Counted from the stretch's first letter, positions 13,457 to 61,939 are shown. The stretch is DNA of 64,000 bases from Candidatus Cloacimonadales bacterium (GCA_963678315.1 OY782781.1:2144001-2208000), one strand, 5' to 3'. Numbers and translations: made by a program. Notes: a model not told the origin generated them from the letters alone.

Positions 13457-13808
13457 TATAAAGTGACACCCAACTTTTCCATCTGCAATAACGATGTTCT
13501 AATCTTTTAAAGTCTTATTTTTTAGTATCTTGCACCTATTTTACATCGTTTTTTCAAAATTTCCATTTTAAACGCTTTCGAGGTACATTTCTGCCGTTCA
13601 GATTACAGTTTTACAGGAGCTTTGTAGGTGTGGAAATATGGGTGTCATCTCTAAAGCATTATAGATTAGTAGTTTATGGACTATTTTATTTTAGGGTTGA
13701 ACTGAAATCGTTTTTTTTCGTTTTTTCAGGGTGAAAAAGCGATTTCGATGTCTCATTTTAGGTGAAATAGCGTAAAAACGATTTTGAGATTGTGACAGTG
13801 TTATTTCC
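13457..13808 (+). repeat. Left end: TIR plus TGACA-N6/7-TTTCC putative transposase-binding sites
   Basis: Sites at 13464-13480 (+), 13632-13647 (-), 13793-13808 (+). Confidence 0.75.
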
Positions 13809-13883
13809 ATTTTGCAAAAACGATAAAAGTGGTACCTTTTTTTTTCATATTATCACATCAGATTATTTATCATAATATTTCTA

Positions 13884-13913
13884 TTGACATATCGAATACT
13901 AGGGTGCTATATA
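13884..13913 (+). promoter_or_regulatory. Putative sigma-70 promoter of the leftmost element gene
   Basis: TTGACA at 13884, TGCTATAT ~15-17 bp downstream, AAGGAGG RBS before ATG 13941. Confidence 0.45.
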
Positions 13914-13940
13914 TCTAATGTATTCACATAAGGAGGTAAT

Positions 13941-14582
13941 ATGAGTCTACAATCAATTGTTAATGAAATTTATTTACAAGACAGTATCAGAGTTGAAATT
14001 GACTTATGGTTAACAGGTCAGTGGTCTTTACAAAGAAAAAGAAAAAAAGAATCGATTACTTTTAGAAATTTTAAGTATAGAGATCTTTGGCGTGAATCTA
14101 ATTTAAGTATTGATTCATTGAGATCATTGTTATATAAAAACTTAACAAAAGAAGTTAACAATGAAATAAACAAGCCAATCATCGAAGAGGCTAGTGAATA
14201 CTTAAAAAGTATTTATAGTAAATATACTGATCAATACATTAGAAATGAAGTTTTATTCCAGATTTTTAAAAACTATTGCTTTGAAGTTAAAATAACACTT
14301 TCTGAAGTTTTGAAATGTTTAACTGATAAGGACTGCAATCTGATTCTTTCAAAATTATCTTTTGGAGAAATTAAGGAAGAAAATCAAACAATCATAATGA
14401 GTTATAACTTGGTTGAGAATAATGAAATTGTTGATGAGCATATATTCACTATCGGTAAACATATATTTACATTGCTTAAAGATAAGTGCAATAAAATTAC
14501 ATTTGATGAATTAGAAAATGAAGACCCTAACGAAGATACTTTAAAGAGATCAGAAAAATTTTCATGTCATAATGATTATTAA
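13941..14582 (+). CDS. Hypothetical protein (moron-like, own promoter)
   Basis: 213-aa ORF with strong RBS; no motif recognised. Confidence 0.65.
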   Translation: MSLQSIVNEIYLQDSIRVEIDLWLTGQWSLQRKRKKESITFRNFKYRDLWRESNLSIDSLRSLLYKNLTKEVNNEINKPIIEEASEYLKSIYSKYTDQYIRNEVLFQIFKNYCFEVKITLSEVLKCLTDKDCNLILSKLSFGEIKEENQTIIMSYNLVENNEIVDEHIFTIGKHIFTLLKDKCNKITFDELENEDPNEDTLKRSEKFSCHNDY

Positions 14583-14675
14583 AACTAATGATCAAAAAAC
14601 TAAATAACATATCTTAGCTAGGCGTTTAATTCATACAACTAGAGCTCTAGCTAGGATATTGTTACAAAAATATTA

Positions 14676-15404
14676 TTAAATCACCCTAAACAAGAATACC
14701 ATCTCACCTAAGATCCTGAAAGTCTCAAGTTCGTACTCTTCTATTATTATTACATCAAAATCTGGATTTAAAGGTTTCAGGATAACCCTCTTCTTCTCAT
14801 TATCGAATTGTAGCTTTTTAAGTGTCACTCCATCTGGAGTCTGACAAGCACTAATCTTGCCATCAAGACAAGGAATATCCATACTCTCTTTGATTACGAC
14901 TATATCCCCATGCATAATTTTAGGCTCCATACTCCTGCCATTAATTTTGAGAGCAATATACTTATCCTGGCTGTCTGAAAGATATGCTTTAGGTATCTCA
15001 ATATATTTTGATGGAGACTCATCATAACATTCTAATGGTTGACCTGCTGAAATCTCTCCATATATTGGGAGAGTAATATTTCTAGAATCGAATAGATTTA
15101 ACTTATGTTTAAAAACAGAATTATTACCTGTTAACTCTTCAATGTTCTTTTTTTGACCTTCTCCATATAGATTGCCATCAGCATCAGCAACAAACATTCC
15201 ACCTTTGCCAGTTAACAACCAATTTAAGTTCAAACCATAGCATTCATTTATTCTCGCCATGGCAGATGCCGAAGGTTTACTTGCTTTTTTTCTGTTCACC
15301 CAATCAGAAAGATTTCCTGGGGTTACCTCAATAGTTTTAGCAAAATCGGATCGCTTTATGTCTAGTGCATTTACGAACATTAACAGCCTATCTTTTATGT
15401 CCAT
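14676..15404 (-). CDS. CI/LexA-like repressor (HTH plus S24 peptidase)
   Basis: XRE HTH (FAKTIEVTPGNLSDW, NLNWLLTGKG); GEISAG cleavage site, GRSMEP Ser, TLKK Lys; start MDIKDR after AGGAG. Confidence 0.9.
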   Translation of the reverse strand: MDIKDRLLMFVNALDIKRSDFAKTIEVTPGNLSDWVNRKKASKPSASAMARINECYGLNLNWLLTGKGGMFVADADGNLYGEGQKKNIEELTGNNSVFKHKLNLFDSRNITLPIYGEISAGQPLECYDESPSKYIEIPKAYLSDSQDKYIALKINGRSMEPKIMHGDIVVIKESMDIPCLDGKISACQTPDGVTLKKLQFDNEKKRVILKPLNPDFDVIIIEEYELETFRILGEMVFLFRVI

Positions 15405-15429
15405 TTCATCTCCTATGTTAAGCACAACT

Positions 15430-15567: not shown

Positions 15568-15810
15568 ATGAGATCACCGTACTATCCAGCTGAAATAAAG
15601 TCAGCTATGTCTCTTAAAAGCATTACTATTAGGGAAATGGCTGAACAGCTTTTGGTCTCCAGGAGAACTATAGAATATTTTATTAATGAAGGTCGTAGAC
15701 TAAGACAAGCACAGGTTTTCTTAGAATTACTACAGCCTGAGCTTCGCGAAATCAGTAAAATCTATCGCAAACACACTAACAAAGATATTATAAGCTCTGA
15801 AAAGAGATAG
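15568..15810 (+). CDS. Ner/Cro-like HTH protein
   Basis: ITIREMAEQLLVSRRTIEYFI HTH; divergent from the repressor, directly before the transposase. Confidence 0.7.
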   Translation: MRSPYYPAEIKSAMSLKSITIREMAEQLLVSRRTIEYFINEGRRLRQAQVFLELLQPELREISKIYRKHTNKDIISSEKR

Positions 15811-15812
15811 TT

Positions 15813-17831
15813 ATGAGATATAGAGAACTATCAATCGAAGAAATACAAAAATTATTTGTATTAAGTAAAGCAGCTGCATATCGAATGACTAAAGCACATG
15901 AATGGGATTTCATCAGCGAGACATTAAAGAAAGGTGGAAGAAAGAAACTATATTTAGTTCCTGCTGATGCAATACCTGAAGAAGAGGAGCTAGCTAGACT
16001 AGTTGAGAACTCTTCCCTACCTGATGATGTAGAGTCAGATTTAGTCGAGTTTGATAATCCAGTAAATGATTTTGTACCACAAATAGTATTTTCACAACAT
16101 GAACTTTTAAGAGCTCAGTTAAAAGCTGAACTCTGTGAGAAAATATTATCTGAATATAAAAGACTAGGTGTTAAAAAGCATGCTGTTGATGAAGTGTTAG
16201 AAGTTTATAACTCAGGACTGTTATTACCAATATTATTCAAACTTGAAGGCTCTAGGACAGCACGTTCTATTCGTATGTGGCTTAAAGACTATGAAGATAA
16301 TGGCAGAGACTATAAAGTTCTGATTCGTTTATCTAAAGCATCAAGTATTAAGAAAGCAACTCTTAAGGAACAGAACTTTTTACTGGGACTATTGTTAGAT
16401 GCTAACAAAGTTAAGATTGGCACAGCTATTAGGAAGTTAAAGCAGTTTAGTAGACTTGGAGCTATTGAATCAGACACAAGTGGAAGAGCTCTTAGACGTT
16501 GGTGTGAAGAGTGGCGAGATAGTAACATACAACAGTGGAATATACTTCGAATGGGAGAAAAATATTCTAAGGACAACTACATATTTAGCCTTACACGTTC
16601 AGATGAACTAAACGTAGGCGATGTATGGGTTGCTGATGGTCATCAACTAGCCTTTGATATTATTGATCCTGATTCAGGAAAGCCTAAACGTATGATGCTT
16701 TTACTATTTTTTGATTGGGCAAGTAGATATCCTGTTGGAGCTTCACTTGCTAATACTGAAGACTCAGAGCATATCTTACTAGCATTAAGAAATGGTATCC
16801 TGCACTGGAATGGCAGACCTAAGTATGTCTATCTTGATAACGGTAGAGCTTTTAAATCTAAACTGTTCCATCAAAAATGGGATGAGCATAATCTTGAAGA
16901 TGAATTCTGTGGAGTATTCCCAAGATTAGATATCAAAGCAGAATTTGCTAAAGCCTATAATGCTAGAGCAAAGGTTGTTGAGAGATTCTTTAGAACATTC
17001 CAAGAAGATTTTGAACGCTCTATGAATACCTTTAGAGGTGCCAGTATAGCAGATAAACCTGCCTTCTTAATGAGAAACGAGAAGTGGATAAAAAAGCTCA
17101 AAAAACGTGAGCCTGTAACTATTGAAGAAGCCAAGAGTATGATGTCATTCTATTTTCAAGAGATGTATGGAAAAACACCCCATGGTGGACTTGCAGGTAA
17201 AACTCCTCTGGAAGTATTTAGAGCTAGTGAAGTACCTGAAGAGAGAAAGATTGAAGACTCTGAACTTAACTTCTTAATGTTGAAGATTGAGCAAAGGAAA
17301 ATTAGAGCCAATGGAGTTCAGCTCTTCAGTATAGTCTATTATCATGATTATCTCATGAACTATGTTGGGCAAAAAGTTTCACTACGCTATGATTTAATGG
17401 ATATGCGATCAGTTTTAGTCTATGATAAAAATGGCAAGATTATATGCCAGGCTTTAGCTAAGAAGAGTGTTCATCCATTTGTTAAACTTGCTGAGAATGA
17501 ACCTTTAGCTAAAAAGCAATGGCTTAAACAACTAGCTCATCAAAGAAGATTAGAGAAAGATGTTAAAGAAAAATCAGCTCTAATCCAAAAGCAAGTTCAA
17601 GAGGCAATTTCAGAGTTTGAACTACCAATTCTTAAAATAACAAACAGTGCTTTTAATGATTCAAGCATGTTAACACATAAAGCTACTTTTAATCCAAGCA
17701 TTGACCTTGATAAAATGGCAGAAAGTACAGCACATATAATTTCAACATCACAACAACTACCTATTAAAACAATAGAAGAACGAGGACTTGAGAATCTCGA
17801 TAAAATGCTTAAACAGATCGGTATAGATTAG
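15813..17831 (+). CDS. MuA-like DDE transposase
   Basis: WVADGH / YLDNGRAF / KVVERFF triad; Mu transposase C-terminal-like region (RKIRANGVQL...VSLRYDLMDM). Confidence 0.92.
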   Translation: MRYRELSIEEIQKLFVLSKAAAYRMTKAHEWDFISETLKKGGRKKLYLVPADAIPEEEELARLVENSSLPDDVESDLVEFDNPVNDFVPQIVFSQHELLRAQLKAELCEKILSEYKRLGVKKHAVDEVLEVYNSGLLLPILFKLEGSRTARSIRMWLKDYEDNGRDYKVLIRLSKASSIKKATLKEQNFLLGLLLDANKVKIGTAIRKLKQFSRLGAIESDTSGRALRRWCEEWRDSNIQQWNILRMGEKYSKDNYIFSLTRSDELNVGDVWVADGHQLAFDIIDPDSGKPKRMMLLLFFDWASRYPVGASLANTEDSEHILLALRNGILHWNGRPKYVYLDNGRAFKSKLFHQKWDEHNLEDEFCGVFPRLDIKAEFAKAYNARAKVVERFFRTFQEDFERSMNTFRGASIADKPAFLMRNEKWIKKLKKREPVTIEEAKSMMSFYFQEMYGKTPHGGLAGKTPLEVFRASEVPEERKIEDSELNFLMLKIEQRKIRANGVQLFSIVYYHDYLMNYVGQKVSLRYDLMDMRSVLVYDKNGKIICQALAKKSVHPFVKLAENEPLAKKQWLKQLAHQRRLEKDVKEKSALIQKQVQEAISEFELPILKITNSAFNDSSMLTHKATFNPSIDLDKMAESTAHIISTSQQLPIKTIEERGLENLDKMLKQIGID

Positions 17832-17839: not shown

Positions 17840-18553
17840 ATGCGAGAATATACCTTAGCAAAAACCAACAACGTAAAAAAAGGCTACGAGCTTTTTGATT
17901 ATCTAATTAACAGACCTAAAACTGAAATGGTTGGTCTTGGACTTATATATGGTCCTCCAGGACTTGGTAAAAGCAGATTTGCACGCCAGACAGCTATTCA
18001 AAACAATTATATATATTTCAGATTAGAAGCTACTATGACAGCTAAAAGCTTTGCTAGTAGGTTACTTGAACGAATATACTTCCATTTTGGAATGCCTAAG
18101 ATTGGTATAAAAGGAAGTGCTAACCTAATTTTTCAAAAATGCTTAGATATTTTGAGAAATATTGATAATACAATCATAATTATAGATGAGATAGATTATG
18201 CCTTTAAAGACAAAAAGGTTTTAGGCAGTATTCGTGATATTGTAGATGAAACATTGTCTATCATTATCCTTGTAGGAATGTCAGATGCTAAAGAGAGTCT
18301 ACTATCAGCTGATGCTCATTACTTTGATAGATGCAACTTCTTCTGCCAGTTTAAACCACTTGATGTTAAGGATTTAACACTTTTATGTAAAGTGGCATGC
18401 GAAGTTGAAGTAGATGATATAGTTATTAAACATATAGCAAAAAGAACTAAAGGTAATATCAGGAAGTTTATAAAATCACTCTACTCTTTAGAAAACTTAG
18501 CTGAAGCTCAAAATCTTACAATTATAAAACCACAACATTTAAGCTCATTGTAG
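17840..18553 (+). CDS. MuB-like AAA+ ATPase
   Basis: Walker A GPPGLGKS, Walker B IIIIDEID, downstream of the transposase. Confidence 0.9.
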   Translation: MREYTLAKTNNVKKGYELFDYLINRPKTEMVGLGLIYGPPGLGKSRFARQTAIQNNYIYFRLEATMTAKSFASRLLERIYFHFGMPKIGIKGSANLIFQKCLDILRNIDNTIIIIDEIDYAFKDKKVLGSIRDIVDETLSIIILVGMSDAKESLLSADAHYFDRCNFFCQFKPLDVKDLTLLCKVACEVEVDDIVIKHIAKRTKGNIRKFIKSLYSLENLAEAQNLTIIKPQHLSSL

Positions 18554-18562: not shown

Positions 18563-19663
18563 ATGGAAATATCTAATTTTAAGAAAGTAAGAAACTTTAT
18601 TGAGTATTTTGGTAAGCCATTTACCTGCACAGTTGTTGCAGGTGAAACTGGTTTAACTAAAGTACAAGCGACCAAAGTATTGGGTAGAATGTTAACTAAA
18701 GGAATTATTAAAGCCATTTCTAAAGAAGGAAAATACGCTATCTACGTTAAGAATAGCGATTATAAAGAATCAAATCTAGTTAACAGCTACAATTTTGAAA
18801 TAAAATTTTTAAAGAACATTATCAAGAAATTGAAAAGTGGAGACTTCACTAGTGCTAGGCAGATAGCAGAATCCCTTGGTTGTGAGAAGAAACGTTTAAC
18901 ACGTTATTTGGTAGCACTCTGTTCTATTGGAATAGTAGATGTTGTTGATAGACAATATAAAGTCGTTAAAGACATCGATCTACTTCTAGTTGGAAGTAAG
19001 TTTGATAAATTAATTTTAAAGAAACTCAAAGCCAAAAACGTTGAGTTTGAAGAAGGAGTAATAATGGGAAGAAAGGAGAAGATGCTATATGATGCTAATG
19101 GAAGAGAGTACCCAGCAAAGATACTTGATCCTCACATCGTAAAGAGAGATACAGTCGTTAATCGTCTTATGGGTAAAGCTATAAAACTACATGATAAAAT
19201 TGAATCTGATAAGATTAAAATGGCTGAAGATATTGATAAGTATTTAACCCAGACAGCTCAGAAGTATGGAGAAGAGTGGAAAGGTAATGCAGAGTTAGTA
19301 TCTTTTGATGGTAAGTACAAGGTTGAAATTAGACAAAGAGAGCATATTGATTTCAGTGAAAAACTTCAAATAGCTAAACAGAAGATTGATGATTGTTTAA
19401 AGCGTTGGAGTGAAGATTCAAATATTAATCTTCAGGCTGTTATCAAAGAAGCCTTTCAAGTTGATAAGAAAGGAGAGATTGCTAAAAGCAGAATCTTAGG
19501 TCTTAGACGCTATAACATCAAAGATAAACAGTGGCAACAAGCAATGGATTTAATCGATGAGGCTATCCAGGTAACTTCAACTAAACAGTATATCGCCTTT
19601 TATGAAAGAGCAAGCAAGGATAAGTCATTCAAGCTTGTCTCACTTAATTTTAGTGCATTATAG
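18563..19663 (+). CDS. Tandem winged-HTH protein fused in frame to a DUF3164-like Mu-phage protein
   Basis: Two HTH-like segments; C-term KGNAELVSFDGKYKV...AFQVDKKG...WQQAMDLI; internal GAAGGAG RBS and ATG at 19064. Confidence 0.7.
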   Translation: MEISNFKKVRNFIEYFGKPFTCTVVAGETGLTKVQATKVLGRMLTKGIIKAISKEGKYAIYVKNSDYKESNLVNSYNFEIKFLKNIIKKLKSGDFTSARQIAESLGCEKKRLTRYLVALCSIGIVDVVDRQYKVVKDIDLLLVGSKFDKLILKKLKAKNVEFEEGVIMGRKEKMLYDANGREYPAKILDPHIVKRDTVVNRLMGKAIKLHDKIESDKIKMAEDIDKYLTQTAQKYGEEWKGNAELVSFDGKYKVEIRQREHIDFSEKLQIAKQKIDDCLKRWSEDSNINLQAVIKEAFQVDKKGEIAKSRILGLRRYNIKDKQWQQAMDLIDEAIQVTSTKQYIAFYERASKDKSFKLVSLNFSAL

Positions 19664-19795
19664 ATAATTTATCAGCAAAGTGACTGCTCCTAATCCTGGG
19701 AGTGTTTCTCTTTGCTTATTTTTTTGTGGTAACTGTAGGCATCGAGGTTTGACGATATCCTCTAGTCTGTTTAGATAGCTCCAGGAGATATAAAT

Positions 19796-20008
19796 ATGGT
19801 ACAAGTTTTTAATGAGAGCAGATGCTACACTCCAGTTGGAGTAGCAGAAATATTGAGTGTAGATATAAGTACAATCTACAGATTGATAAGAGACATTGAT
19901 GATCCTCTTCCTGCATTTAGATTAAAGAATAATGGGCAGTTAAGAGTTCATGGAAAAGAAATCAACAAATACCTAGAAGATCATAAAGTTGATCCTCTTT
20001 ACGAATAA
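19796..20008 (+). CDS. Excisionase-like HTH protein
   Basis: YTPVGVAEILSVDISTIYRLI...LPAFRL. Confidence 0.75.
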   Translation: MVQVFNESRCYTPVGVAEILSVDISTIYRLIRDIDDPLPAFRLKNNGQLRVHGKEINKYLEDHKVDPLYE

Positions 20009-20013
20009 ATAAA

Positions 20014-20397
20014 ATGACTGAAAGGCAGATTGAGTTAGCAAAGCGTTTGAGAAAGAAGATAGTTATTTTCGCAAAAAATGATCTCCGAATAACTATGGAT
20101 GAACTTCATTATCAGATGCAAACTTTAGGATATGGAATATCTTTAAGAGCACTCAATCTGCCTTCTTTAGTTAACTTAAATCTTATCATCCGAGGAAAGC
20201 AAAACCATATCTATGAGAATCTTGATCCTCAAGGTAAGAAGATATGGGCACTCTATAAATCATCTAATTGGAGTAAAGACCAGTTGTATGCATTTATAGC
20301 TCAGAAATTTAGCAAATCAGGAATCAAATATCTAACCAAAAATGAAAAAGGAACTTTAATTAAAGTCTTACAATCTTATGAACTCAAGAGAATATAA
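20014..20397 (+). CDS. Mu GemA/gp16-like protein
   Basis: Position and pattern KKIWALYK...LYAFIAQKF...YLTKNEKGTLIKVL. Confidence 0.5.
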   Translation: MTERQIELAKRLRKKIVIFAKNDLRITMDELHYQMQTLGYGISLRALNLPSLVNLNLIIRGKQNHIYENLDPQGKKIWALYKSSNWSKDQLYAFIAQKFSKSGIKYLTKNEKGTLIKVLQSYELKRI

Positions 20398-20839
20398 AAT
20401 AAAACGTATATCAGCTAAAAAGCTCTATCTTAAGGGTGAAACTAATGCAGTAGCACTTGCTAAGATTTATGATGTTGCCGAAAAGACAGTCAGGAACTGG
20501 ATTAAGAAAGGTAACTGGGAAGCTGAACATGATGAGATAGCATCTCTTGAAGACAAGATTAAGATAGCTCTTAAGAAGGCTTTAATTAAAGCTCTAACAG
20601 AATATGCGAGAGCACCACAAGACACTGCTCTTCAATCTTTAGTATCACTGCTTAGACAGTACAAGAAAGATTTCGAACCTACCAAAGACTTTATCGAATA
20701 TATGAAAAAGTTCTTAGATTGGCTTGTTGATTATTTCTTAACTAAAAATGATGATGAAATAGCCAGATCAATTCAAAAAGAAATTTTAGGAGAATCTGGT
20801 ATTGTAGAATATTTTAGAAAGAGAGCAAGTAGTGGTTAA
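20378..20839 (+). CDS. Probable terminase small subunit (N-terminal HTH)
   Basis: AKKLYL...LAKIYDVAEKTVRNWIKKGNW; directly upstream of the large subunit. Confidence 0.65.
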   Translation: MNSREYKIKRISAKKLYLKGETNAVALAKIYDVAEKTVRNWIKKGNWEAEHDEIASLEDKIKIALKKALIKALTEYARAPQDTALQSLVSLLRQYKKDFEPTKDFIEYMKKFLDWLVDYFLTKNDDEIARSIQKEILGESGIVEYFRKRASSG

Positions 20840-22376: not shown

Positions 22377-23251
22377 CATATTTTGATAAGCTTATTTACC
22401 AATACTACCAAGTTTTGAACAACTCCTGGAAGAAGGAAATCAAAGATTCAGCCAAGCAAGCTCTTCAGATGCTAGCAGATATCCCAAAACATGAAAGAAT
22501 AAATAAGAGCCATATAGACGACATCTTAAACATAATAGCCTCCAACATGGGAGAAGACTTTTCATCGCTTGTACGCACCGATACGAAGGCTTTCATCAAA
22601 AGAAACCTCCTATTAGGTCTTAGTGATGCCAAGAAACAAGTGCCAAATAATATATCGATAGGAATATATGGAATCAGAGAAAACAAATTAGAAACTCTCA
22701 TCACTAAACAAAATCTCTTCTGGATAGGAAATAAGTATGGCACAGATATCGAAACCAGATTCAAGAACACACTTAAAGAATCGGTATCTTCAGGATTTAC
22801 CAAAGAGATGCTTGCTAATAAGCTAAAAGAAGAGTTCAAATCTCTTGGAGATAAGAATCAACACTACTGGCAAGGTTTAGCTGAGCATACAGCCCTTAGA
22901 ATACGAGAATTTGGAAGATTAGAAGGATATCATAAAGCAGGAGCTACAGGCTACAGGCTTGTTGTTGTACTTGATGATAGAACATCAGAGATTTGCAGAG
23001 CTTTAGCAAGCCAGGACAAAGTATATCCTGTAGATACTGCTATTGATACTATGAACCAGCTATTAAGCATAAATACCAATAAACACTCCTTAGACACAGT
23101 TAGAGAAATGACTAAGCAGATAGCTCCTTGGGTTTCTGATAAACAAATAAAAAGAGACCCAACTGGTAATCCAATTGGAGTCTCTGTAAATTATTCACCT
23201 TTCCCGCCATTTCATTGGAGATGTAGGACTACTACTGAAATTGTTTATTAG
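22373..23251 (+). CDS. Head morphogenesis protein (Mu gpF / SPP1 gp7 family)
   Basis: LDDRTSEIC and PPFHWRCRT motifs. Confidence 0.85.
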   Translation: MTYFDKLIYQYYQVLNNSWKKEIKDSAKQALQMLADIPKHERINKSHIDDILNIIASNMGEDFSSLVRTDTKAFIKRNLLLGLSDAKKQVPNNISIGIYGIRENKLETLITKQNLFWIGNKYGTDIETRFKNTLKESVSSGFTKEMLANKLKEEFKSLGDKNQHYWQGLAEHTALRIREFGRLEGYHKAGATGYRLVVVLDDRTSEICRALASQDKVYPVDTAIDTMNQLLSINTNKHSLDTVREMTKQIAPWVSDKQIKRDPTGNPIGVSVNYSPFPPFHWRCRTTTEIVY

Positions 23252-24266: not shown

Positions 24267-24276
24267 ATATTAACTC

Positions 24277-24762: not shown

Positions 24763-24764
24763 TA

Positions 24765-51620: not shown

Positions 51621-51628
51621 GAGTATTT

Positions 51629-54600: not shown

Positions 54601-57600
54601 AGAAAATAACCCAATCTATGTGACATCAATAAAAAATGATCTTGTAAATGGTGATACTAACAGTGATTTAGACAACTCCACTCCAGCTAAAGGAGATTGG
54701 GGTTATATCAAATTTTCTTCAACTTCTCAATCTAGCATAGCAAATTGTTTCTTAAGTTATGGAGGATATAATAGTTATAACTTGTATGTTGATAATGCAG
54801 ATTTATCTATTGATAACATTTCAATTGAAAATGCACAAAATATTGGTCTCTTGACAAACTGTAGTATTACGATATCTAATAGTAATTTTAAAAACTGTAC
54901 TATTGGAATAAAAACGGATCAATCTAATAATGAATTCAAATATCCAATCATTAGTAACTGTACTTTTGAAGAAAACACCTATCCTGTTGTTCAATATAAT
55001 GGTTCTTTCCCTGTTTACTACAATAATACATTTACTAACAATAGTTATCAAGGCATTGGGGTTCAAGGCACAATATCCAATTCAGAACTAACTGCTGAAT
55101 GTACATGGTCTATGGAACATGGACTGCCATATATTTTATCAGACCATCTAACTATAAATGATAATATAACACTATCAATACCTGCTGGGTTTATTTTGAA
55201 AGCTACTATAAATTCTTCTGGCTATGGATATTATAGAAGATGCATTAATGTTAATGGTAATTTATTGGTAAATGGAACAGAAAACAATCCTGTATATTTC
55301 ACGTCACTTAATGATGATAGCATTGGAGGTGACACTAATAGCGATTCTGATAATTCGATTCCCAATAAGGGGGACTGGGGATATATCAAATTTAATTCTT
55401 CAGCACAATCTAGTTTAGAACATTGTTATTTTAGGTTTGGAGGAAGAAAAAGACGATATAATAATTATTCAAGTAGTTATGACCAAAATTACTTATTATG
55501 GATCGATAATGCTAATATTGAGCTTAATAATGTAGTAGTTCAATCTGCTTATGATATAGGCATATCGACTAATAGTAATACTCAGTTAAACAACACTACT
55601 CTTAAACACTGTAATAAAGCAATTACAACCAACCAACTTAATAATGAGTTTAAATATCCTATAATTAGCAACTGCTCCTTTGAAGAAAACACCTATCCTA
55701 TAATTCAATACAACGGTTCTTTTCCTATCTATTCAAATAATACTTTCACAAATAATAGTTATCAAGGCATCGGTGTTCAAGGTACAATATCCAATTCAGA
55801 GCTAACTGCTGAGTGTACATGGTCGTTGGAACATGGGTTACCGTATATTTTAACAGGAAATTTAACTATAAATGATAATATTAACATGATGTTTTCTCCT
55901 GGGTTAGTTTTAAAAGGTCAGAATCAGTATAATATAACAGTTAATGGAAATTTAACAGCTAATGGACTAGAAAATAACCCAATCTATGTGACATCAATAA
56001 AAAATGATCTTGTAAATGGTGATACTAACAGTGATTTAGACAACTCCACTCCAGCTAAAGGAGATTGGGGTTATATCAAATTTTCTTCAACTTCTCAATC
56101 TAGCATAGCAAATTGTTTCTTAAGTTATGGAGGATATAATAGTTATAACTTGTATGTTGATAATGCAGATTTATCTATTGATAACATTTCAATTGAAAAT
56201 GCACAAAATATTGGTCTCTTGACAAACTGTAGTATTACGATATCTAATAGTAATTTTAAAAACTGTACTATTGGAATAAAAACGGATCAATCTAATAATG
56301 AATTCAAATATCCAATCATTAGTAACTGTACTTTTGAAGAAAACACCTATCCTGTTGTTCAATATAATGGTTCTTTCCCTGTTTACTACAATAATACATT
56401 TACTAACAATAGTTATCAAGGCATTGGGGTTCAAGGCACAATATCCAATTCAGAACTAACTGCTGAATGTACATGGTCTATGGAACATGGACTGCCATAT
56501 ATTTTATCAGACCATCTAACTATAAATGATAATATAACACTATCAATACCTGCTGGGTTTATTTTGAAAGCTACTATAAATTCTTCTGGCTATGGATATT
56601 ATAGAAGATGCATTAATGTTAATGGTAATTTATTGGTAAATGGAACAGAAAACAATCCTGTATATTTCACGTCACTTAATGATGATAGCATTGGAGGTGA
56701 CACTAATAGCGATTCTGATAATTCGATTCCCAATAAGGGGGACTGGGGATATATCAAATTTAATTCTTCAGCACAATCTAGTTTAGAACATTGTTATTTT
56801 AGGTTTGGAGGAAGAAAAAGACGATATAATAATTATTCAAGTAGTTATGACCAAAATTACTTATTATGGATCGATAATGCTAATATTGAGCTTAATAATG
56901 TAGTAGTTCAATCTGCTTATGATACAGGAATCTATATTTATGGAGATGAAATATGCAATATTACAAATTCAACATTTCAAGAATGTAATACAGGAGTATA
57001 TATAAATGACTGTTCTGCATTAATAACTGATTGTTTGTTTACTTTCTGTAACACTGGTATATACTTTAATAAAGACACAATGTCTATAGTCTCAAATAGT
57101 AACTTTTCATTCTGTTCTGATCAAGCAATATACTTAAATGGAAATGGAGAAAATCCAACTCCATTAGTTACTGACTGTAATTTTATAAATAATCAAAACT
57201 TTAATGTAAAACTGAACTCTTATCAGGATCCTACTAGAACTCTGAATTTTGAAGATAACTGGTGGGGCACCAACAATGCAAGCTTAATTGAAGAGAAAAT
57301 CTATGATTTTAGTGATAATGAAAGTTGTGCAAGTGTTGATTACTCTCCTTATTTAACCCAAATTAACCAGGATATCTCTAATATTGCAGATTTCAATGGC
57401 AGTGGAAGAGTTGACGGGTTTGATTTAGCAATTCTTGGAAATACATTTGGAACTTCTTCTTCAGACGAAAATTATAATCTTGCAGTAGATTTAAATACAA
57501 GTGGAAGAATTGATGGATTTGATTTAGCCATCTTTGCAACTCACTTTGGTGAAATAGGACCTAATGATAGAGCATTGGATGATATTGAGAATAGTAACAC

Positions 57601-58312
57601 TAATTTAGTATCAAAATTGGAATTATCACATGATTATTCAAACTTAGAGATAGGAGATATCATTGAAATTCCGATCACTCTTAGAAATGATTATTCATGC
57701 TTAGGTATAGCATTTGATTTAGACTTTAATCCTGATATCTTTGAAGTAATTGATTTCTATTTTATGGATACAATGATATCTAACCAAAATATTAACTTCT
57801 ATAGTATAAATAATCAAGTTGGTAAAGTAATTATTGGTACCTCTACAAAATATCTTAATATTGATTACCTAAGAGGTTTAACCAATATAGCAACAGTTTC
57901 GTTTAAAGTTATTAGTCAATTTAGTAATGAAACAATTTTAGTTGATAATCAAAACTTGATAGAATATGGTGGGGCAACTTTTATAGAATTAGATGCGAAT
58001 GAGGTTGATCTTACTTCAGATGTTAATGAAGTTAGTTTTGTTGAAAGTCTTTCAAATTATCCGAATCCTTTTAACCCTACTACAACGATTTCATTTACAC
58101 TACCGAAATCAGAGGAAGTAGAAATCACTATATATAACATTAAAGGTCAGAGAGTAAAGGAACTTATAAAGGGACAGTTGAAAGCTGGTATAAATAACGT
58201 TATATGGGATGGGAAAAATGAAAACGGTCTGATGTCATCAAGTGGAGTATATTTATATAGAATAAAAACAGATAGTAATAATATTGTTAGAAAAATGTCA
58301 TTAATGAAATAG
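51629..58312 (+). CDS. Giant secreted beta-helix repeat protein with dockerin, cohesin and FlgD-Ig CTD (2227 aa)
   Basis: FTSxxDDxxGGDTN...GDWGYI repeats; DFNGSGRVDGFDLA / DLNTSGRIDGFDLA duplicated Ca-binding loops; GIAFDLDFNPD; NYPNPFNPTT. Confidence 0.85.
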   Translation: MKKVIFSLFLVSIFSFMFGYTEVSGNISEDTTWNDAVYSVTNNIHVQNNATLTIAAGTIIKFHYRKNIQVSGNLVLQSTSTSKIIFTSIKDDTYGGDTNNDGSSSTPNDADWGYFKFTTADEINFHDVIVKYGGYNSYCFYVQDSVVEFNSCHIEDCHQVGILANCNITVNNTTIKGCSIGIKTDQSNNEFKYPIISNCTFEENTYPVVQYNGSFPVYYNNTFTNNSYQGIGVQGTISNSELTAECTWSMEHGLPYILSDHLTINDNITLSIPAGFILKATINSSGYGYYRRCINVNGNLLVNGTENNPVYFTSLNDDSIGGDTNSDSDNSIPNKGDWGYIKFNSSAQSSLEHCYFRFGGRKRRYNNYSSSYDQNYLLWIDNANIELNNVVVQSAYDIGISTNSNTQLNNTTLKHCNKAITTNQLNNEFKYPIISNCSFEENTYPIIQYNGSFPIYSNNTFTNNSYQGIGVQGTISNSELTAECTWSLEHGLPYILTGNLTINDNINMMFSPGLVLKGQNQYNITVNGNLTANGLENNPIYVTSIKNDLVNGDTNSDLDNSTPAKGDWGYIKFSSTSQSSIANCFLSYGGYNSYNLYVDNADLSIDNISIENAQNIGLLTNCSITISNSNFKNCTIGIKTDQSNNEFKYPIISNCTFEENTYPVVQYNGSFPVYYNNTFTNNSYQGIGVQGTISNSELTAECTWSMEHGLPYILSDHLTINDNITLSIPAGFILKATINSSGYGYYRRCINVNGNLLVNGTENNPVYFTSLNDDSIGGDTNSDSDNSIPNKGDWGYIKFNSSAQSSLEHCYFRFGGRKRRYNNYSSSYDQNYLLWIDNANIELNNVVVQSAYDIGISTNSNTQLNNTTLKHCNKAITTNQLNNEFKYPIISNCSFEENTYPIIQYNGSFPIYSNNTFTNNSYQGIGVQGTISNSELTAECTWSLEHGLPYILTGNLTINDNINMMFSPGLVLKGQNQYNITVNGNLTANGLENNPIYVTSIKNDLVNGDTNSDLDNSTPAKGDWGYIKFSSTSQSSIANCFLSYGGYNSYNLYVDNADLSIDNISIENAQNIGLLTNCSITISNSNFKNCTIGIKTDQSNNEFKYPIISNCTFEENTYPVVQYNGSFPVYYNNTFTNNSYQGIGVQGTISNSELTAECTWSMEHGLPYILSDHLTINDNITLSIPAGFILKATINSSGYGYYRRCINVNGNLLVNGTENNPVYFTSLNDDSIGGDTNSDSDNSIPNKGDWGYIKFNSSAQSSLEHCYFRFGGRKRRYNNYSSSYDQNYLLWIDNANIELNNVVVQSAYDIGISTNSNTQLNNTTLKHCNKAITTNQLNNEFKYPIISNCSFEENTYPIIQYNGSFPIYSNNTFTNNSYQGIGVQGTISNSELTAECTWSLEHGLPYILTGNLTINDNINMMFSPGLVLKGQNQYNITVNGNLTANGLENNPIYVTSIKNDLVNGDTNSDLDNSTPAKGDWGYIKFSSTSQSSIANCFLSYGGYNSYNLYVDNADLSIDNISIENAQNIGLLTNCSITISNSNFKNCTIGIKTDQSNNEFKYPIISNCTFEENTYPVVQYNGSFPVYYNNTFTNNSYQGIGVQGTISNSELTAECTWSMEHGLPYILSDHLTINDNITLSIPAGFILKATINSSGYGYYRRCINVNGNLLVNGTENNPVYFTSLNDDSIGGDTNSDSDNSIPNKGDWGYIKFNSSAQSSLEHCYFRFGGRKRRYNNYSSSYDQNYLLWIDNANIELNNVVVQSAYDTGIYIYGDEICNITNSTFQECNTGVYINDCSALITDCLFTFCNTGIYFNKDTMSIVSNSNFSFCSDQAIYLNGNGENPTPLVTDCNFINNQNFNVKLNSYQDPTRTLNFEDNWWGTNNASLIEEKIYDFSDNESCASVDYSPYLTQINQDISNIADFNGSGRVDGFDLAILGNTFGTSSSDENYNLAVDLNTSGRIDGFDLAIFATHFGEIGPNDRALDDIENSNTNLVSKLELSHDYSNLEIGDIIEIPITLRNDYSCLGIAFDLDFNPDIFEVIDFYFMDTMISNQNINFYSINNQVGKVIIGTSTKYLNIDYLRGLTNIATVSFKVISQFSNETILVDNQNLIEYGGATFIELDANEVDLTSDVNEVSFVESLSNYPNPFNPTTTISFTLPKSEEVEITIYNIKGQRVKELIKGQLKAGINNVIWDGKNENGLMSSSGVYLYRIKTDSNNIVRKMSLMK
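52165..56924 (+). repeat. Intragenic tandem repeat, 1368 bp (456 aa) x ~3.5
   Basis: TATTGGAATAAAAACGGATC at 52165, 53533, 54901 and 56269; copies appear identical. Confidence 0.95.
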
Positions 58313-58322
58313 GAGTAGAACA

Positions 58323-61067
58323 ATGAAGAAATTCTTAATAATATTAATTGTTTTATTACATCTCTCTATTATTAACGCGGAGGATGTCATTTTTGAAACA
58401 GACTTTTCTGATAGTGAAGGTTATTCCGTCGACTATAGATATGGGAACTATAATTATAGTTGGGGAAGAGTATTATCTGGCGGTATTGTAAATAATAGAG
58501 AAAACTATCCTCCAGATATTAACTACGAAGATGGAAATGATATTTTATATTCAGCAAGTCAAAAATATAATAATGATATCAATCCAATTCTTGAATATGA
58601 TGATGTTTCTAGGAACATCATTAGATTAGGTGAAAAAGAATATTTAGGAGGAAGTACTTATAAACATTCAATTCCCTTACTTGGGTATGAAGAGTATAAA
58701 TTAAGGTTTGATTATTGTATTCCTTCAATTGGTTATAGAGATAGATTGATAGTAGCTATTGATACAACAGCTAGTGAATTTAGCTTAAATTTCAATGACA
58801 ATTCTCAAATTTCGGAAAGTGATTTTTTAGAAAGCCTGATTATTCTAGATGAATATGAGGATGCTACTAATGGATTTTTCAGTGGTTTTAGATGGGAGTC
58901 AATAGACATTGACTTAACTGAATACAAAGGTTCAACTATATCTCTAATTTTCTATTTCAAAGCCGAGTTTAGAGTTAATGACTTATTTTTCGGAAGTCAA
59001 ATAGGTCCATTTATTGATAATGTATCTGTAACTGGTAATGGTAAATTGCTTGAATCCAATAAGCATGAAATTTCATTTGGTAATTTTTACAATGGAGAGA
59101 TATCAGAAGAAGAGCATTTTTGGTTAAGAAATAACACTTCTGATTATGGAACAATTACTGAAGTTCAAATACCTGATGGTTTTGAAGTTAAATTTAGTTT
59201 TTTGAATGAATGGAATGAACAACTAATAAACTCTTTCATTAATCATAATTCTGTTGAATACACTTTCGATGTACGATTCAATTCTAATTTTATAGGTAAT
59301 GAAAGTGGCATTATAGAAGGTGATTTAATTATACAAACAGATTTAGAAAACTCATTGCCTGTTATAATTCACTTATCAGCTCAATGTGGAGAGCCTCCAA
59401 CTGGTTTACTTTCAATAATAGGACCAATCGAAAATCCAGATTTGAATCATGAATTTGAAGTTGACATCATTGTCAATACTGGGAATATTTCAAACCTATT
59501 TGGAGTAGCTTGTGACCTCATATATAATCCATTAGACATAATTCCAGTAAGTATTTCACATGGTGATGGTTTAACCGAGAACGGTCAGAACCAGGTATCA
59601 TTCCAAGACTACATTGACTATGATGAAAACACAATAATAATTGGAAGTACTTGTTTGCAAGGTAGCTATGTTTTACCACCACAAAACAGTAATGAACATA
59701 TTGCAACCATACGATTTAGGACACTCAGTTATGGACAGACAAATTTAGTTTTAAATAATACAGGTCTGATAAATCAATTTGGTGAAAGTTCATTAGGTTG
59801 CGATACCGAAGATCTTGCAATAAATGTTACACCCTCTGAATTGATTGCAAGCCTATCATTTAATAATAATCAAATAAATACTTCTATAAACAATGACTTT
59901 GAAGTAGATTTAATGATTGATAATGTAGAGAATTTATTTGCGTTTGCTTGCGATGTAGAATATGATTCTGATAAAATTTCAATAAATGAAATAATCTATA
60001 ATGATGCTTTAGGGGAAACATCACAATTTTTAATGAGTAATAATAATGATGGTTTAGTCACTATTGGAATAACAAGGTTAAACAATAGTTCTCAAGGTGT
60101 AGATATTAACGATATATCTTCAATATTTACTATTAATGCAACTGCCAATTCACCAGGTGATTGTGACTTACTTGTAACAAATATTGGATTATTAGCTCCA
60201 GATGCTGTAACTTCTTATAATTATGCAAATAATGCTACATGCAATGTATCAATATCAAATTTTGAGCTTATTCTAAATATTCCTGAAACATTTAGTGTAG
60301 ATGAGGATGAATCATTGAATATAAATATGCAACCATATTTCTCATATAATGCAGAGTATAATGAGTTTTTTATTTTTGAATTTGAAGGAAATGATAATAT
60401 AGAGATAGATTATATTGATTGGATTGTGACAATAGAACCTTATGAGAATTGGAATGGTACACAAAGTGTAGAAATGATAATCAAAGAAAACAACAATTCG
60501 GTTATAACCAGTACTAATTTTGAGATTGAAGTTAATTCTATAAACGATTCACCACAAATCGCTTTAGATTTACCAGATATTTCAGTTAATCAAGGTCAAT
60601 TGGAGTTTGATATAAATCTTGATGAGATTTTTATTGATATCGATCATAATGATGAGTTATACTATTCCGTTGAAGGTTACACAAACATATTTGCATTTGT
60701 AAATCAAAGCATGCTATTTTTAAGATGTTCTCCATATTGGTCTGGAACCGAAACGATTACAATTAATGCGAGTGATGGTATAGAGACAGTTTCTTCTTCA
60801 TTCATCGTAACAGTTGAGCCAATTGTTATTAGTCTAGAAGTTCCAGAGGTATCCATATTTGTGGAAAATAATCTAATACATATAGAATGGCAAGCAGTTA
60901 ATGGGGCAAGTTCTTATAAAGTTTTTTCCACAACTAATCCTATGGGTTTAGATTTTAATGATGTTACAAGTGAAGGGACATTTCAATTATACAGTAACAC
61001 CATTAGATGGCAATGTCAAGAAAACACTAACTATAAATTCTATAAAGTTAAAGCATCTACAGATTAA
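58323..61067 (+). CDS. Secreted protein with two cohesin-like domains and cadherin/Ig-like repeats
   Basis: NLFGVACDLIYNP and NLFAFACDVEYD; PYENWNGT, VNSINDSP and PYWSGTE repeats. Confidence 0.75.
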   Translation: MKKFLIILIVLLHLSIINAEDVIFETDFSDSEGYSVDYRYGNYNYSWGRVLSGGIVNNRENYPPDINYEDGNDILYSASQKYNNDINPILEYDDVSRNIIRLGEKEYLGGSTYKHSIPLLGYEEYKLRFDYCIPSIGYRDRLIVAIDTTASEFSLNFNDNSQISESDFLESLIILDEYEDATNGFFSGFRWESIDIDLTEYKGSTISLIFYFKAEFRVNDLFFGSQIGPFIDNVSVTGNGKLLESNKHEISFGNFYNGEISEEEHFWLRNNTSDYGTITEVQIPDGFEVKFSFLNEWNEQLINSFINHNSVEYTFDVRFNSNFIGNESGIIEGDLIIQTDLENSLPVIIHLSAQCGEPPTGLLSIIGPIENPDLNHEFEVDIIVNTGNISNLFGVACDLIYNPLDIIPVSISHGDGLTENGQNQVSFQDYIDYDENTIIIGSTCLQGSYVLPPQNSNEHIATIRFRTLSYGQTNLVLNNTGLINQFGESSLGCDTEDLAINVTPSELIASLSFNNNQINTSINNDFEVDLMIDNVENLFAFACDVEYDSDKISINEIIYNDALGETSQFLMSNNNDGLVTIGITRLNNSSQGVDINDISSIFTINATANSPGDCDLLVTNIGLLAPDAVTSYNYANNATCNVSISNFELILNIPETFSVDEDESLNINMQPYFSYNAEYNEFFIFEFEGNDNIEIDYIDWIVTIEPYENWNGTQSVEMIIKENNNSVITSTNFEIEVNSINDSPQIALDLPDISVNQGQLEFDINLDEIFIDIDHNDELYYSVEGYTNIFAFVNQSMLFLRCSPYWSGTETITINASDGIETVSSSFIVTVEPIVISLEVPEVSIFVENNLIHIEWQAVNGASSYKVFSTTNPMGLDFNDVTSEGTFQLYSNTIRWQCQENTNYKFYKVKASTD

Positions 61068-61079
61068 TTAATTATTAAT

Positions 61080-61110
61080 GAGATATATCTCTTTTCTTTG
61101 AGGTATATCT
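61080..61110. terminator. Hairpin between convergent genes
   Basis: GAGATATATCTC-N-GAGGTATATCTC. Confidence 0.5.
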
Positions 61111-61113
61111 CTC

Positions 61114-61482
61114 TTACCAAGTTCTTACCTTATAAGTAATATCATTATATTCAAATTGTTCTAAATCAATCTTAGCTTTTAAAGCTACTTTTTCAAACAA
61201 CTGACCTAGTTCATCACGTTCACCTGTTTCAATAAAAGTATAGCCTGTCATTTGATCTAATGCATTAAACTCAATAACTGCCTTTTCAATTAGAACTATC
61301 TTAATCTCAGCTTTAGCTCTTAAGCCAGCTTTTGCTAAATCTTCAAGTAAAGTATCCATAATTTGAACAGCACAGTCACAGTTAATTTTACAGTATTGTG
61401 TTAAACCATCTTTATAATAACCTCTCCACACTTCAAATGGGTAGCCTGCTTTTAACTGTTCTAATCTTTCTTTATAAGTCAT
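61114..61482 (-). CDS. Conserved right-terminal hypothetical protein, copy 2
   Basis: Intact, same-length paralogue of 45682-46050. Confidence 0.8.
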   Translation of the reverse strand: MTYKERLEQLKAGYPFEVWRGYYKDGLTQYCKINCDCAVQIMDTLLEDLAKAGLRAKAEIKIVLIEKAVIEFNALDQMTGYTFIETGERDELGQLFEKVALKAKIDLEQFEYNDITYKVRTW

Positions 61483-61619
61483 CGTTAACTCCTTTTTCTT
61501 CATTAATTTATGTCTCTACAATATAACTTTAATGAAAGAAGTCAAGTCAAATAGACATTATTTTACACAGTTAAATAGTTATTATTTAATGAGTTAGTGC
61601 TATATTAAATTAATTACAT

Positions 61620-61939
61620 GGAAATAGTGAAGTCACTTTTTCCACCTAACAGAAGAGGAAATAAAGTTGTCAAAAATTATCCAGCAATATCTTATGTATG
61701 TGTTTATATATTAGTACTTTATAAAATGGAAATAATGGTGACATCAAAAGGACAGCTATTTTTCCTTAATATAGATGCTTTAGAGGAATGTGGAAATATC
61801 TTTGTCAATTTAGATTTTTTCACTTATATCATCATAAGTGTTTAATGTGTGGTGCTTTAAGCATCATAATAGTCTAATATTATCTTTAAAAATGGAAGTT
61901 ACGCTGTCGCTACAAGGAAAAAACCTATGTCAATTTATA
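61620..61939 (-). repeat. Right end of element 2: GGAAA-N6/7-TGTCA-like sites plus TIR
   Basis: Exact or near matches at 61620, 61657, 61750, 61792, 61894 and 61916; TGTCAATTTATA at 61928-61939. Confidence 0.75.

Follow-up and report, generated by a model that had tools for sequence, protein, structure and literature searches.

The window analysed here is a 64,000-nucleotide stretch (G000:C1:2144001–2208000) of the complete 2.99-Mb genome of a Candidatus Cloacimonadales bacterium (genome G000; G+C content ∼31%). It contains two related Mu-like elements, designated E1 (13457–46500) and E2 (∼48046–61939), and a third, E3, lies ∼260 kb away in the same genome (genome coordinates 2417578 to ∼2454343). 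The elements are Mu-derived and on their gene content unable to make virions alone, as a first-pass annotation of the window had proposed, and they carry operons of secreted proteins where complete relatives carry head and tail genes. They are compared below with related genomes, coded G001, G003, G005, G007, G024, G027, G031 and G036, and with viral contigs from the IMG/VR database.

E1 is bounded by exact inverted copies of the 12-nt repeat TATAAAGTGACA, at 13457 on the plus strand and at 46489–46500 on the minus strand, and comparison of the flanks reveals the two copies of a GTATC target-site duplication at 13452–13456 and 46501–46505. The corresponding motif at the right end of E2 is TATAAATTGACA, an exact match at 61928–61939 (minus strand). 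The end motif alone is weak evidence, because its six matches with at most one mismatch in the window, against 2.79 expected, are also reached in 6 of 100 shuffles; genome-wide there are seven exact matches, five of which are element ends. Putative transposase-site-like words of the form GTGACA-N5-7-TTTTCC have four strict matches, all at E1 ends. The left end (13457–13860, plus strand) combines TATAAAGTGACA with the word GTGACA-N6-TTTTCC and is ∼72% identical to both left ends of E3, and the right end (46072–46500, plus strand) has repeated words of this type together with the terminal inverted repeat. When 13457–46505 is excised in silico, an open frame of 128 codons is restored across the joint in a VOC/glyoxalase gene (13101–13469; PF00903), which E1 entered a few codons inside. 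The 5-bp duplication and the insertion inside this gene show that E1 arrived by Mu-type transposition.

The early region of E1 is that of a transposable phage. A 213-aa gene (13941–14582, plus strand) occupies a left-end accessory slot, which in E3 has the defence candidate PDC-S31, and is followed by a repressor (14676–15425, minus strand) with helix-turn-helix (HTH) and S24 self-cleaving peptidase domains (PF00717, 76.5 bits; phrog_4, E 1e-37) and by a small ner-like HTH protein (15568–15810, plus strand) that has weak HTH matches and a position kept in relatives. Next come an intact 672-aa MuA-type DDE transposase (15813–17831, plus strand; PF09299 (Mu-transpos_C), 65.3 bits; phrog_310, E 3.4e-85) and, adjoining it, a MuB-type AAA+ transposition ATPase (17840–18553, plus strand; phrog_296, E 1.1e-26; AAA_22, TniB). 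The three MuA motifs carrying the DDE residues, as assigned by eye, align with the TnsB core (E 4e-11). The middle region (18563–20397, plus strand), kept in relatives, encodes a DUF3164 protein (PF11363, 185 bits), an HTH_17 protein and a 127-aa protein, and the packaging genes (20378–23251, plus strand) encode a small terminase, a 514-aa large terminase and a MuF-like head protein (phrog_38, E 6e-60; phrog_4151/1889; PF04233; phrog_241); for the last of these the PF04233 match, at 26.2 bits, is under the 29.6-bit cut-off, and the phrog_241 match has an E value of 4e-13. With a MuA-type transposase, an adjacent MuB-type ATPase, and inverted ends with a 5-bp duplication, E1 would be classed as a Mu-like transposable phage. 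The repressor, MuA, MuB and both ends had been described as apparently intact, and the profile matches, the inverted TATAAAGTGACA copies and the GTATC duplication agree with that description.

The late region is incomplete. Three small genes for proteins of 141, 154 and 124 aa (32197–33454, plus strand), which precede the portal in all relatives and have no family match, lead into a truncated portal of 236 aa (33455–34165, plus strand). Its homology to the 393-aa portal of E3 ends at residue 212 (∼base 34090), in accord with the cut at ∼210 aa seen on the first pass, and its final 24 codons are antisense to a sigma factor-like gene. At the far side of the block that this gene begins lie six distal-tail/fibre genes (130, 149, 274, 80, 190 and 224 aa; 42338–45636, plus strand), which are downstream of the tape measure in complete relatives; the 190-aa protein matches phrog_23008 (tail fibre) with an E value of 2.5e-10. 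The last gene (45682–46071, minus strand) encodes a 129-aa protein without a family match, present only in E1, E2 and E3 at 74–88% aa identity. Searches of E1 by tblastn with the proteins of a complete relative found no endolysin, protease-capsid fusion, tail-tube candidate, Dam or tape measure, so that the reported absence of protease, capsid, tail tube, tape measure and lysis genes stands. The loss comprises everything from portal residue 213 through the gene for a 143-aa protein, plus the lysin. Besides the replaced stretch E1 has no broken gene, and its retained genes all have the lengths seen in relatives, including a 366-aa DUF3164 gene that is split in E3. Neither E1 nor E3 has the full virion and lysis set of an autonomous phage (E3 is without tape measure, distal tail and lysin), and E1, with its portal cut at residue 212 and an 8.2-kb virion stretch replaced, is a defective (cryptic) prophage. 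The odd junctions are not assembly errors, because independent contigs from four public runs in two studies bridge 33872–45560, one of them with no mismatches; one of the four runs may be the source sample. The possibility of a misassembly, allowed for in the first-pass annotation, is thus not borne out.

The nature of the chassis is best seen in its complete relatives. MuA relatives occur in 27 of 61 related genomes; whole elements were retrieved from seven places in six genomes with MuA relatives, and one element copy in G003 is known through cross-matches only. The element of G027 has, in order, repressor, ner, A, B, DUF3164, HTH_17, a 130-aa gene, small terminase (TerS), large terminase (TerL), MuF-like gene, a variable minus-strand block and an M15 endolysin, then three small genes, portal, protease-capsid fusion, genes of 180, 68 and 107 aa, Dam, an 872-aa tape measure, the 143-aa gene and six late genes of the E1 type. 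G001 has the same gene set. In the complete relatives (G027, G001 and many IMG/VR contigs) the portal has 393 aa, the XkdF-protease/capsid fusion 578–589 aa, the tail-tube candidate 180 aa and the tape measure 872–993 aa. The capsid is identified by phrog_1623, by genome position and by language-model neighbours (major capsid clusters, score 0.97); an AlphaFold2 model of the 578-aa fusion, from an alignment of 20 rows, had a mean pLDDT of 45 and was too poor for a fold search, and a sequence search of solved structures with the same fusion returned nothing relevant. From 135 IMG/VR relatives of the capsid fusion 80 loci were kept. Downstream of the capsid gene 41 of these continue for 6 kb or more, and a tape measure is present in 38 of the 41, which means that the family is a real and mostly complete phage. 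It is a family of siphovirus-type Mu-like transposable phages of ∼31–35 kb, common in Cloacimonadales, and the proposal that the window reveals a new class of element does not survive this comparison.

Against this background the second cargo block of E1 (34.1–42.3 kb) is conspicuous. Its first gene (34097–35056, minus strand) encodes a sigma-70-like factor of host chromosomal type, with regions 2 and 4 (PF04542/PF04545, both weak) and a C-terminal extension, 84% identical in aa to chromosomal genes of G005 and G007 that stand in syntenic host context. Divergent from it is an operon (35149–41877, plus strand) for 65-, 251- and 360-aa proteins, predicted to be exported, and a 1483-aa beta-helix protein of the type IX secretion system (T9SS) type; the same cassette is present in G005, and the 251- and 360-aa genes have homologues on the G007 chromosome. 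In both the G005 and the G007 chromosome the syntenic sigma gene adjoins two T9SS genes transcribed away from it, a layout also seen in E3. G007 had no MuA match in the search of the 61 related genomes. No chromosomal orthologue of the sigma gene is present in G000, and the chromosomal sigma gene of G007 has the E1 gene as its best match there, at 84%. A search of 203 genomes of the order with 33455–37412 gave matches in 20, mostly to the portal part only. Over the segment from the sigma gene to the 65-aa gene, E1 and the G005 element are 94.5% identical, both are 88–91% identical to the chromosomal copies, and the latter are 93–97% alike among themselves, a pattern that fits a single capture. 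Comparison with the complete relatives shows that the block, a host-type sigma/T9SS unit, has replaced ∼8.2 kb of head and tail genes that began with the C-terminal half of the portal and ended with the tape measure.

E3 has been altered in a similar way at a different place. It is flanked by a 5-bp duplication, TTTGA, and has the second full-length MuA of the genome, 80% identical to that of E1, with the same chassis and minus-strand block. It keeps the 393-aa portal (PF04860, 56.6 bits) and a 578-aa fusion in which an XkdF-type prohead protease is joined to a capsid-like C-terminal part, as well as a 182-aa protein, two small open reading frames (ORFs) and a Dam methylase. Dam is followed by a pair of T9SS genes on the minus strand, another sigma-like gene and the terminal gene; E3 has thus lost everything from the tape measure onward, plus the lysin. 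The left 1.9 kb of E3 is tandemly duplicated (genome 2417578–2421100), a repeat that takes in the end, the PDC-S31-like gene and part of the repressor. A remnant ∼2 kb past its right end (2456475–2457726) retains a repressor, a ner-like gene and part of a MuA gene interrupted by stops, which implies that Mu-like insertions cluster there, as E1 and E2 do.

E2 is the most reduced of the three. Of the small late genes it retains, at 48046–48827 (plus strand), the 154-aa gene whole, the 141-aa gene as its 3′ end and the 124-aa gene as its first 64 codons, with aa identities of 94% and 86%, and over 761 nt E1 32508–33268 and E2 48046–48806 are 86.6% identical. An insertion sequence (IS) element stands at the break (48883–50493, plus strand), with a DDE_Tnp_1 transposase (49184–50341; PF01609) and two 99% identical copies elsewhere in the genome. 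Beyond it is an operon of ∼10.5 kb (50589–61067, plus strand) for three proteins with predicted export, namely two T9SS proteins of 343 and 2227 aa, the larger of the beta-helix/dockerin type, and one of 914 aa. The element closes with the terminal gene (61114–61503) and the right end (61114–61939 in all, minus strand); this region is 88% identical in nt to E3, and E1 45682–46503 and E2 61114–61942 are 73% identical. No left end was found, and E2 starts at ∼48046, right after a host GNAT gene and six tRNA genes. The two elements of the window are therefore related, with a common right end and terminal gene, and the secreted-protein operon of E2 does differ from that of E1, as first described, with the additions that E2 lacks a left end and that an IS precedes its operon. 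Among 11 family genomes no close relative of the 914-aa protein was found, with weak domain matches in 6 of the 11, and the origin of this cargo is untraced.

Several features near E2 are recorded here as observations in their own right. Within the 2227-aa T9SS protein, 51887–56931 consists of 1368-nt tandem units that are 99.6–99.9% identical, each made of two diverged half-units of ∼684 nt. The six tRNA genes (Gly-Leu, Gly-Leu, Cys and Gly; 47213–47850) lie between the right end of E1 and E2, and the cluster includes a 182-nt duplication of the Gly-Leu pair with 99.5% identity. A 34-nt stretch of the E1 right-end region (46124–46157) recurs inverted at 47983–48016, just left of E2, with 85% complementarity, and may be the trace of an inversion or of a Mu-mediated rearrangement.

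Replacement of virion genes is thus a recurrent event. In E1 and G005 the stretch replaced starts at portal residue 212 and stops just short of the 130-aa gene; it reaches from Dam to the terminal gene in E3, and in E2 the terminal gene is again its limit, with codon 64 of the 124-aa gene as the starting point. In G024, which belongs to another bacterial family, it runs from the 180-aa gene to the 80-aa gene, and the insert consists of GH130 enzymes and glycosyltransferases. An IMG/VR contig (L132) has a 482-aa T9SS ORF at the position expected for the tape measure. At least four independent events (E1 type, E3, E2 and G024) are supported, as the first-pass annotation anticipated when it proposed to look for repeated replacement. 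By coordinate arithmetic the inserted and deleted DNA are close in length, 8.25 against 8.18 kb in E1, 6.8 against 7.4 kb in E3 and 6.4 against 7.2 kb in G024, and the total of 33.0 kb for E1 is inside the 30.8–36 kb of family contigs.

The E1 design is also found elsewhere. In G005, a member of another genus, the truncated portal, sigma gene, small genes and beta-helix protein are as in E1, with 84% nt identity over 3958 nt, and the left end of the element resembles that of E1. The flanks differ: the orthologue of the E1 flank gene is 910 kb away, and the right flank corresponds to G000 at ∼1.95 Mb. On a Joint Genome Institute (JGI) metagenome contig, L150, the three small genes are accompanied by a portal that breaks off at the same point (after …EILEQIK), by the sigma gene and by the 65-aa gene; the contig is 89% identical to E1 and 88% to G005. 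G003 holds a scar with the sigma gene, the 65-aa gene and two T9SS genes, in which 97 nt of portal sequence adjoin the 3′ end of the sigma gene. Among the 203 genomes of the order the junction is spanned in two, in full in G005 and as a fragment in G003, besides G000 and the one metagenome contig. Cargo-laden versions are accordingly not confined to a single site, the condition that the first-pass annotation had named as refuting its view, being present at E1, at E3, in G005, on the metagenome contig and as the scar in G003.

Synonymous divergence (dS; Nei–Gojobori estimates in an AT-rich genome, with host gene values near saturation) allows the age of this distribution to be compared with that of the hosts. 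Between E1 and G005, dS is 0.41–0.89 for all 12 genes from TerS to the 80-aa tail gene, whereas host orthologue pairs have a dS of at least 1.07 in 21 of 21 cases, six of them saturated; for the sigma gene of E1 against that of L150 it is 0.13. Element values below host values imply that DNA carrying the defect crossed between lineages after the hosts split.

These comparisons bear on the simplest alternative, ordinary decay in place, according to which complete phages arrived, lost virion genes, took up host DNA where they sit and are now immobile fossils, whose resemblance between genomes would reflect vertical inheritance and genome rearrangement. A minority of defective copies is expected where 38 of 41 family loci are complete, and signs of decay are plain enough: E2 is without a left end, in the G005 copy the right end is lost and the sigma gene broken, an IS is present in E3, one of whose genes is split, and G000 has no recent duplicates. 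We nevertheless think decay in place unlikely. The break after portal residue 212 occurs in G000, in G005, on the metagenome contig and in the G003 scar, all with different flanks; the sigma segment has diverged by 5.5% in nt (dS 0.13 to L150) while host dS is at least 1.07 in 21 of 21 pairs; and E1 is unbroken outside the replaced stretch, with its retained genes at full length.

We consider it likely that E1 and E2 are two separately inserted, virion-defective copies of one Mu-like phage family, that virion genes were swapped for host operons, and that one such design has spread. The portal–sigma junction would have had a single origin followed by horizontal spread, by recombination between related elements, by packaging of the 33-kb element in the capsids of complete relatives, or by both, and the cargo would have been retained through a benefit to the lysogen. 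More generally, the defective design may have spread in particles of a complete relative, by recombination once its DNA had been taken up, or by transposition. With its MuA, MuB and ends, E1 could still transpose inside a cell, and no recent move is seen.

A number of observations weigh against this interpretation. The G005 copy is decaying, with its sigma gene in four pieces, its right end lost and three tail genes missing, and in E3 the DUF3164 gene is split, the left end is duplicated and an IS is present. Divergence is a mosaic, with dS of 1.2–2.0 in early genes, 0.7–0.9 in the N-terminal part of the portal and 0.13 in the adjacent sigma gene, and the three E1-type portal fragments resemble one another no more closely than they resemble the complete portal of E3. 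Near-identical element copies are absent from G000 and the MuA proteins of E1 and E3 are only 80% identical, and therefore no recent transposition is visible in this genome. No complete helper of the same family was found in G000 or G005, and no relatives of the sigma cassette in IMG/VR viral contigs by a method that sees close relatives only. The retained virion genes of E1 have no stops and dN/dS ratios of 0.06–0.22 (TerL 0.06, MuF-like 0.09, portal N-terminal part 0.11), and these low values may have come from functional phages via recombination, because the divergence is mosaic (the 0.7–0.9 of the portal part beside the 0.13 of the sigma gene). For the same reason we rejected low dN/dS as proof of function in the defective state. 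Defective prophages are reportedly under purifying selection (Bobay et al. 2014). The simplest account of the mosaic is repeated homologous recombination among related elements, and of elements with chromosomal sigma loci.

The same data can be read as those of a helper-dependent satellite, a natural 'mini-Mu' that replicates by its own MuA and MuB and is packaged, from its own pac site and by its own terminase, into the heads and tails of a complete relative infecting the same cell, and that would thereby take sigma/T9SS cargo of benefit to the host from cell to cell. Laboratory mini-Mu elements, consisting of the ends with A and B, are replicated and packaged with helper Mu. E1 has intact MuA, MuB, repressor, TerS, TerL and MuF-like genes and both ends; the stop-free virion genes with their low dN/dS, the total of 33.0 kb within the family range, the match of insertions to deletions in all three measurable cases and the horizontal spread of the defective junction are all as expected of such an element. 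Set against these points are the absence of a same-family helper from G000 and G005, a size far above that of known satellites, the lack of any recognised helper-interference gene, the failure to find the sigma cassette in IMG/VR contigs, and the possible origin of the low dN/dS in recombination with functional phages. The packaging length of Mu, moreover, sets an upper bound only. We regard this reading as possible but tentative, and the more specific proposal, that E1-type elements form a Mu-derived, capsid-less lineage of headful size that spreads between genera of Cloacimonadales through replication and packaging during growth of a complete relative in the same cell, and so the first transposable-phage-derived satellite with a self-regulated secretome module, as rather doubtful.

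Two further points on G000 are relevant to the question of a helper. E1 and E3 were considered as a complementing pair and rejected, as jointly they are still without the tape measure, the 143-aa gene and the lysin. A fourth Mu-like prophage (G000 ∼1518000–1551200) is distant, with a MuA of 24% identity, and apparently complete; it has an 832-aa Portal_Mu–MuF fusion, a Clp-type protease, a weak capsid-family match, gp36, an M15 lysin, Dam and a 969-aa tape-measure homologue, and tail-tip genes 28–47% identical to those of E1. In tblastn searches the lysin and tape measure of the complete relative match only this distant prophage in G000.

At the other extreme, as in the reading of the first-pass annotation, the elements could be autonomous cargo transposons that have abandoned the virion and spread secreted and surface genes by MuA/MuB transposition alone. 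The transposase, ATPase and ends of E1 are intact and 5-bp duplications are present, and T9SS genes make up 33.7% of element DNA as against 10.6% of the remaining genome. Such genes are common in G000, with 126 Pfam matches and 130 ORFs by a custom profile (11.2% of the DNA), and P is ∼0.008 that three random host segments of the element lengths would each have a whole T9SS gene, a post hoc value that assumes independence. We nonetheless judge this explanation very unlikely. Terminase, head and tail-tip genes are kept without stops, copies are few and old, and transposition alone cannot cross genera, yet the junction is common to different genera; moreover, replicative Mu transposition without exit kills the host. 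The cargo also includes defence genes and, in G024, glycosyltransferases, so that the earlier view of an exclusively secretome cargo fails for E1 and E3, which carry defence genes, and for G024, where glycosyltransferase/GH130 genes replace tail genes.

Separately inserted, virion-defective phage copies remain our preferred interpretation. The first cargo block of E1 (23.3–31.6 kb) differs in kind from the second. Its defence part (23256–25805, minus strand) encodes an Mrr-like nuclease (PF04471, 57 bits) and the candidate defence pair PDC-M18B (E 4e-39) and PDC-M18A (E 2e-84), and is followed by T9SS cargo (25975–31586, minus strand) consisting of a 1540-aa S8 subtilase with a T9SS C-terminal domain (PF00082, 170 bits; PF18962) and a 322-aa T9SS protein. 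In relatives this slot lies between the MuF-like gene and the lysin, and its contents vary: a type II restriction-modification system in G027, DUF2326/CTD10 ABC-3C-like genes in G001, a type III restriction enzyme in G036, BREX genes in G031, a caspase-STAND protein adjoining epimerase and methyltransferase genes in G024, and a 366-aa T9SS protein in G005. T9SS ORFs are present in 13 of the 80 IMG/VR loci, nearly all on the minus strand in the hot spot and usually as one large and one smaller protein, and 6 of the 13 also hold a tape measure. The slot can take up to 8–9 kb, T9SS-secreted proteases included. The block is thus the normal accessory hot spot of the family and says nothing about loss of virion functions; because complete phages also carry such blocks, it is not a sign of degeneration, as had been supposed for 23–32 kb, and defence systems are present in most of the relatives examined.

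The Mrr-like, 161-aa and 346-aa proteins of E1 and E3 have 96–98% aa identity and the subtilases 85%, and dS between E1 and E3 is 0.03–0.08 in the defence part as against 0.83 in the neighbouring MuF-like gene, which points to recent exchange between the two co-resident elements. Matches to PF18962 (Por_Secre_tail) above the cut-off, and hence predicted secretion, were obtained for the proteins at 25975–30597, 30618–31586, 37426–41877, 50589–51620 and 51629–58312. The description of the cargo as mostly signal-peptide proteins holds in part: 7 of the 10 cargo proteins of E1 have a hydrophobic N-terminus, as judged by eye, but 3 of the 10 have a T9SS C-terminal domain and half of the first block consists of defence genes.

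Further T9SS genes were noted besides these. A chromosomal locus of G000 (genome 2258840–2261326, ∼2.2588–2.2613 Mb) has two tandem paralogues of the 322-aa T9SS gene, at 82–84% aa identity, and an 82-aa fragment of the subtilase C-terminus beside an IS-like edge; it is flanked by HflX and Endonuclease-I-T9SS genes on one side and by pyruvate:ferredoxin oxidoreductase genes on the other. Just past the fibre-like gene of the G031 element (L027 16591–18759) is a gene for a 722-aa streptopain-like C10 peptidase that has inhibitor I69 and ends in a T9SS C-terminal domain.

Strain variation at the locus was visible in public reads. For runs X3, X5 and X6, the cassette at 33904–43172 differs in one sample by 1 of 9269 letters, whereas 44229–45630 differs by 31 of 1402 and the flank 46500–46937 by 13 of 438. 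Near-identical and 2–3% divergent segments form a mosaic between strains across 33904–46937. A 938-nt contig of run X5 has 46500–46937 with 13 mismatches and then, leftwards, 466 unlike letters, the break falling exactly at the right end of E1. Such a break would be expected of an empty site in a strain diverged by ∼3%, although no conclusion is drawn from it. Two weak read joints, 31756>46529 and 45801>45880, were discarded as repeat artefacts, with sides of 20 and 27 letters.

Should the defective design indeed be mobile, it would represent a route from a transposable phage to a helper-dependent carrier of host operons for surface and secreted proteins, and a link, so far missing, from Mu-like phages to cargo transposons or satellites. 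A conservative reading still leaves three novelties: a large undescribed Mu-like phage family in an uncultured phylum, its accessory slot with defence systems or T9SS-secreted proteases, and the ability of whole host sigma/T9SS regulatory units to move between chromosome and prophage. Literature searches, with a limited set of terms and in a limited collection, turned up no account of this phage family, of transposable phages with T9SS cargo, or of satellites derived from Mu in nature.

Among the closest known systems are the Pseudomonas B3/D3112 group and the Bacteroides hankyphage, which share with this family the order of repressor, ner-like gene, MuA, MuB and terminase/head genes, followed in complete relatives by tape measure and tail, as well as the 5-bp target duplication and the confinement of variable genes to specific regions. 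One account describes a core/accessory layout of transposable phages with variable genes in fixed regions (PMC4378225), and another describes the hankyphage as a widespread transposable phage of a host of the Fibrobacteres–Chlorobi–Bacteroidetes (FCB) group with an incomplete lytic cycle (PMC12135933). The present elements differ in that E1, E2 and E3 lack capsid, tube, tape measure or lysin genes, and the family differs in its portal, which is of the PF04860 type and not Portal_Mu, in a capsid fused to an XkdF-type protease, and in an accessory slot that holds 8–9 kb including T9SS-secreted proteases.

Phage satellites (P4, phage-inducible chromosomal islands (PICI), capsid-forming PICI (cf-PICI) and PICI-like elements (PLE)) and laboratory mini-Mu resemble E1 in having their own mobility and regulation genes, a partial virion set and their own terminase. 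Unlike them, E1 measures 33 kb against ∼7–18 kb, and neither a helper nor interference genes were recognised. Tn7, Tn5053 and the CRISPR-associated transposons (CAST) share with E1 a TnsB-related DDE transposase, an AAA+ partner that matches TniB, 5-bp duplications and cargo between the ends. No Pfam match to a target selector of the TniQ/TnsD type was found among 47 ORFs, no search aimed at one having been made. Unlike these transposons, E1 has a phage repressor, TerS, TerL, a MuF-like gene, a portal fragment and tail-tip genes, and it falls outside their class.

The elements fit the description of defective ('grounded' or domesticated) prophages, in which likewise essential virion genes are lost, the retained genes are stop-free with low dN/dS and the cargo is likely to benefit the host; prophages of this kind are described in two reviews (PMC6379469, PMC8987985). 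E1, E2 and E3 are such defective prophages, possibly satellite-like, and not a new class of element. They go beyond the usual in two respects: virion modules have been replaced repeatedly, at approximately equal length, by whole host operons, and one design recurs in different genera at different sites, diverged less than the hosts.

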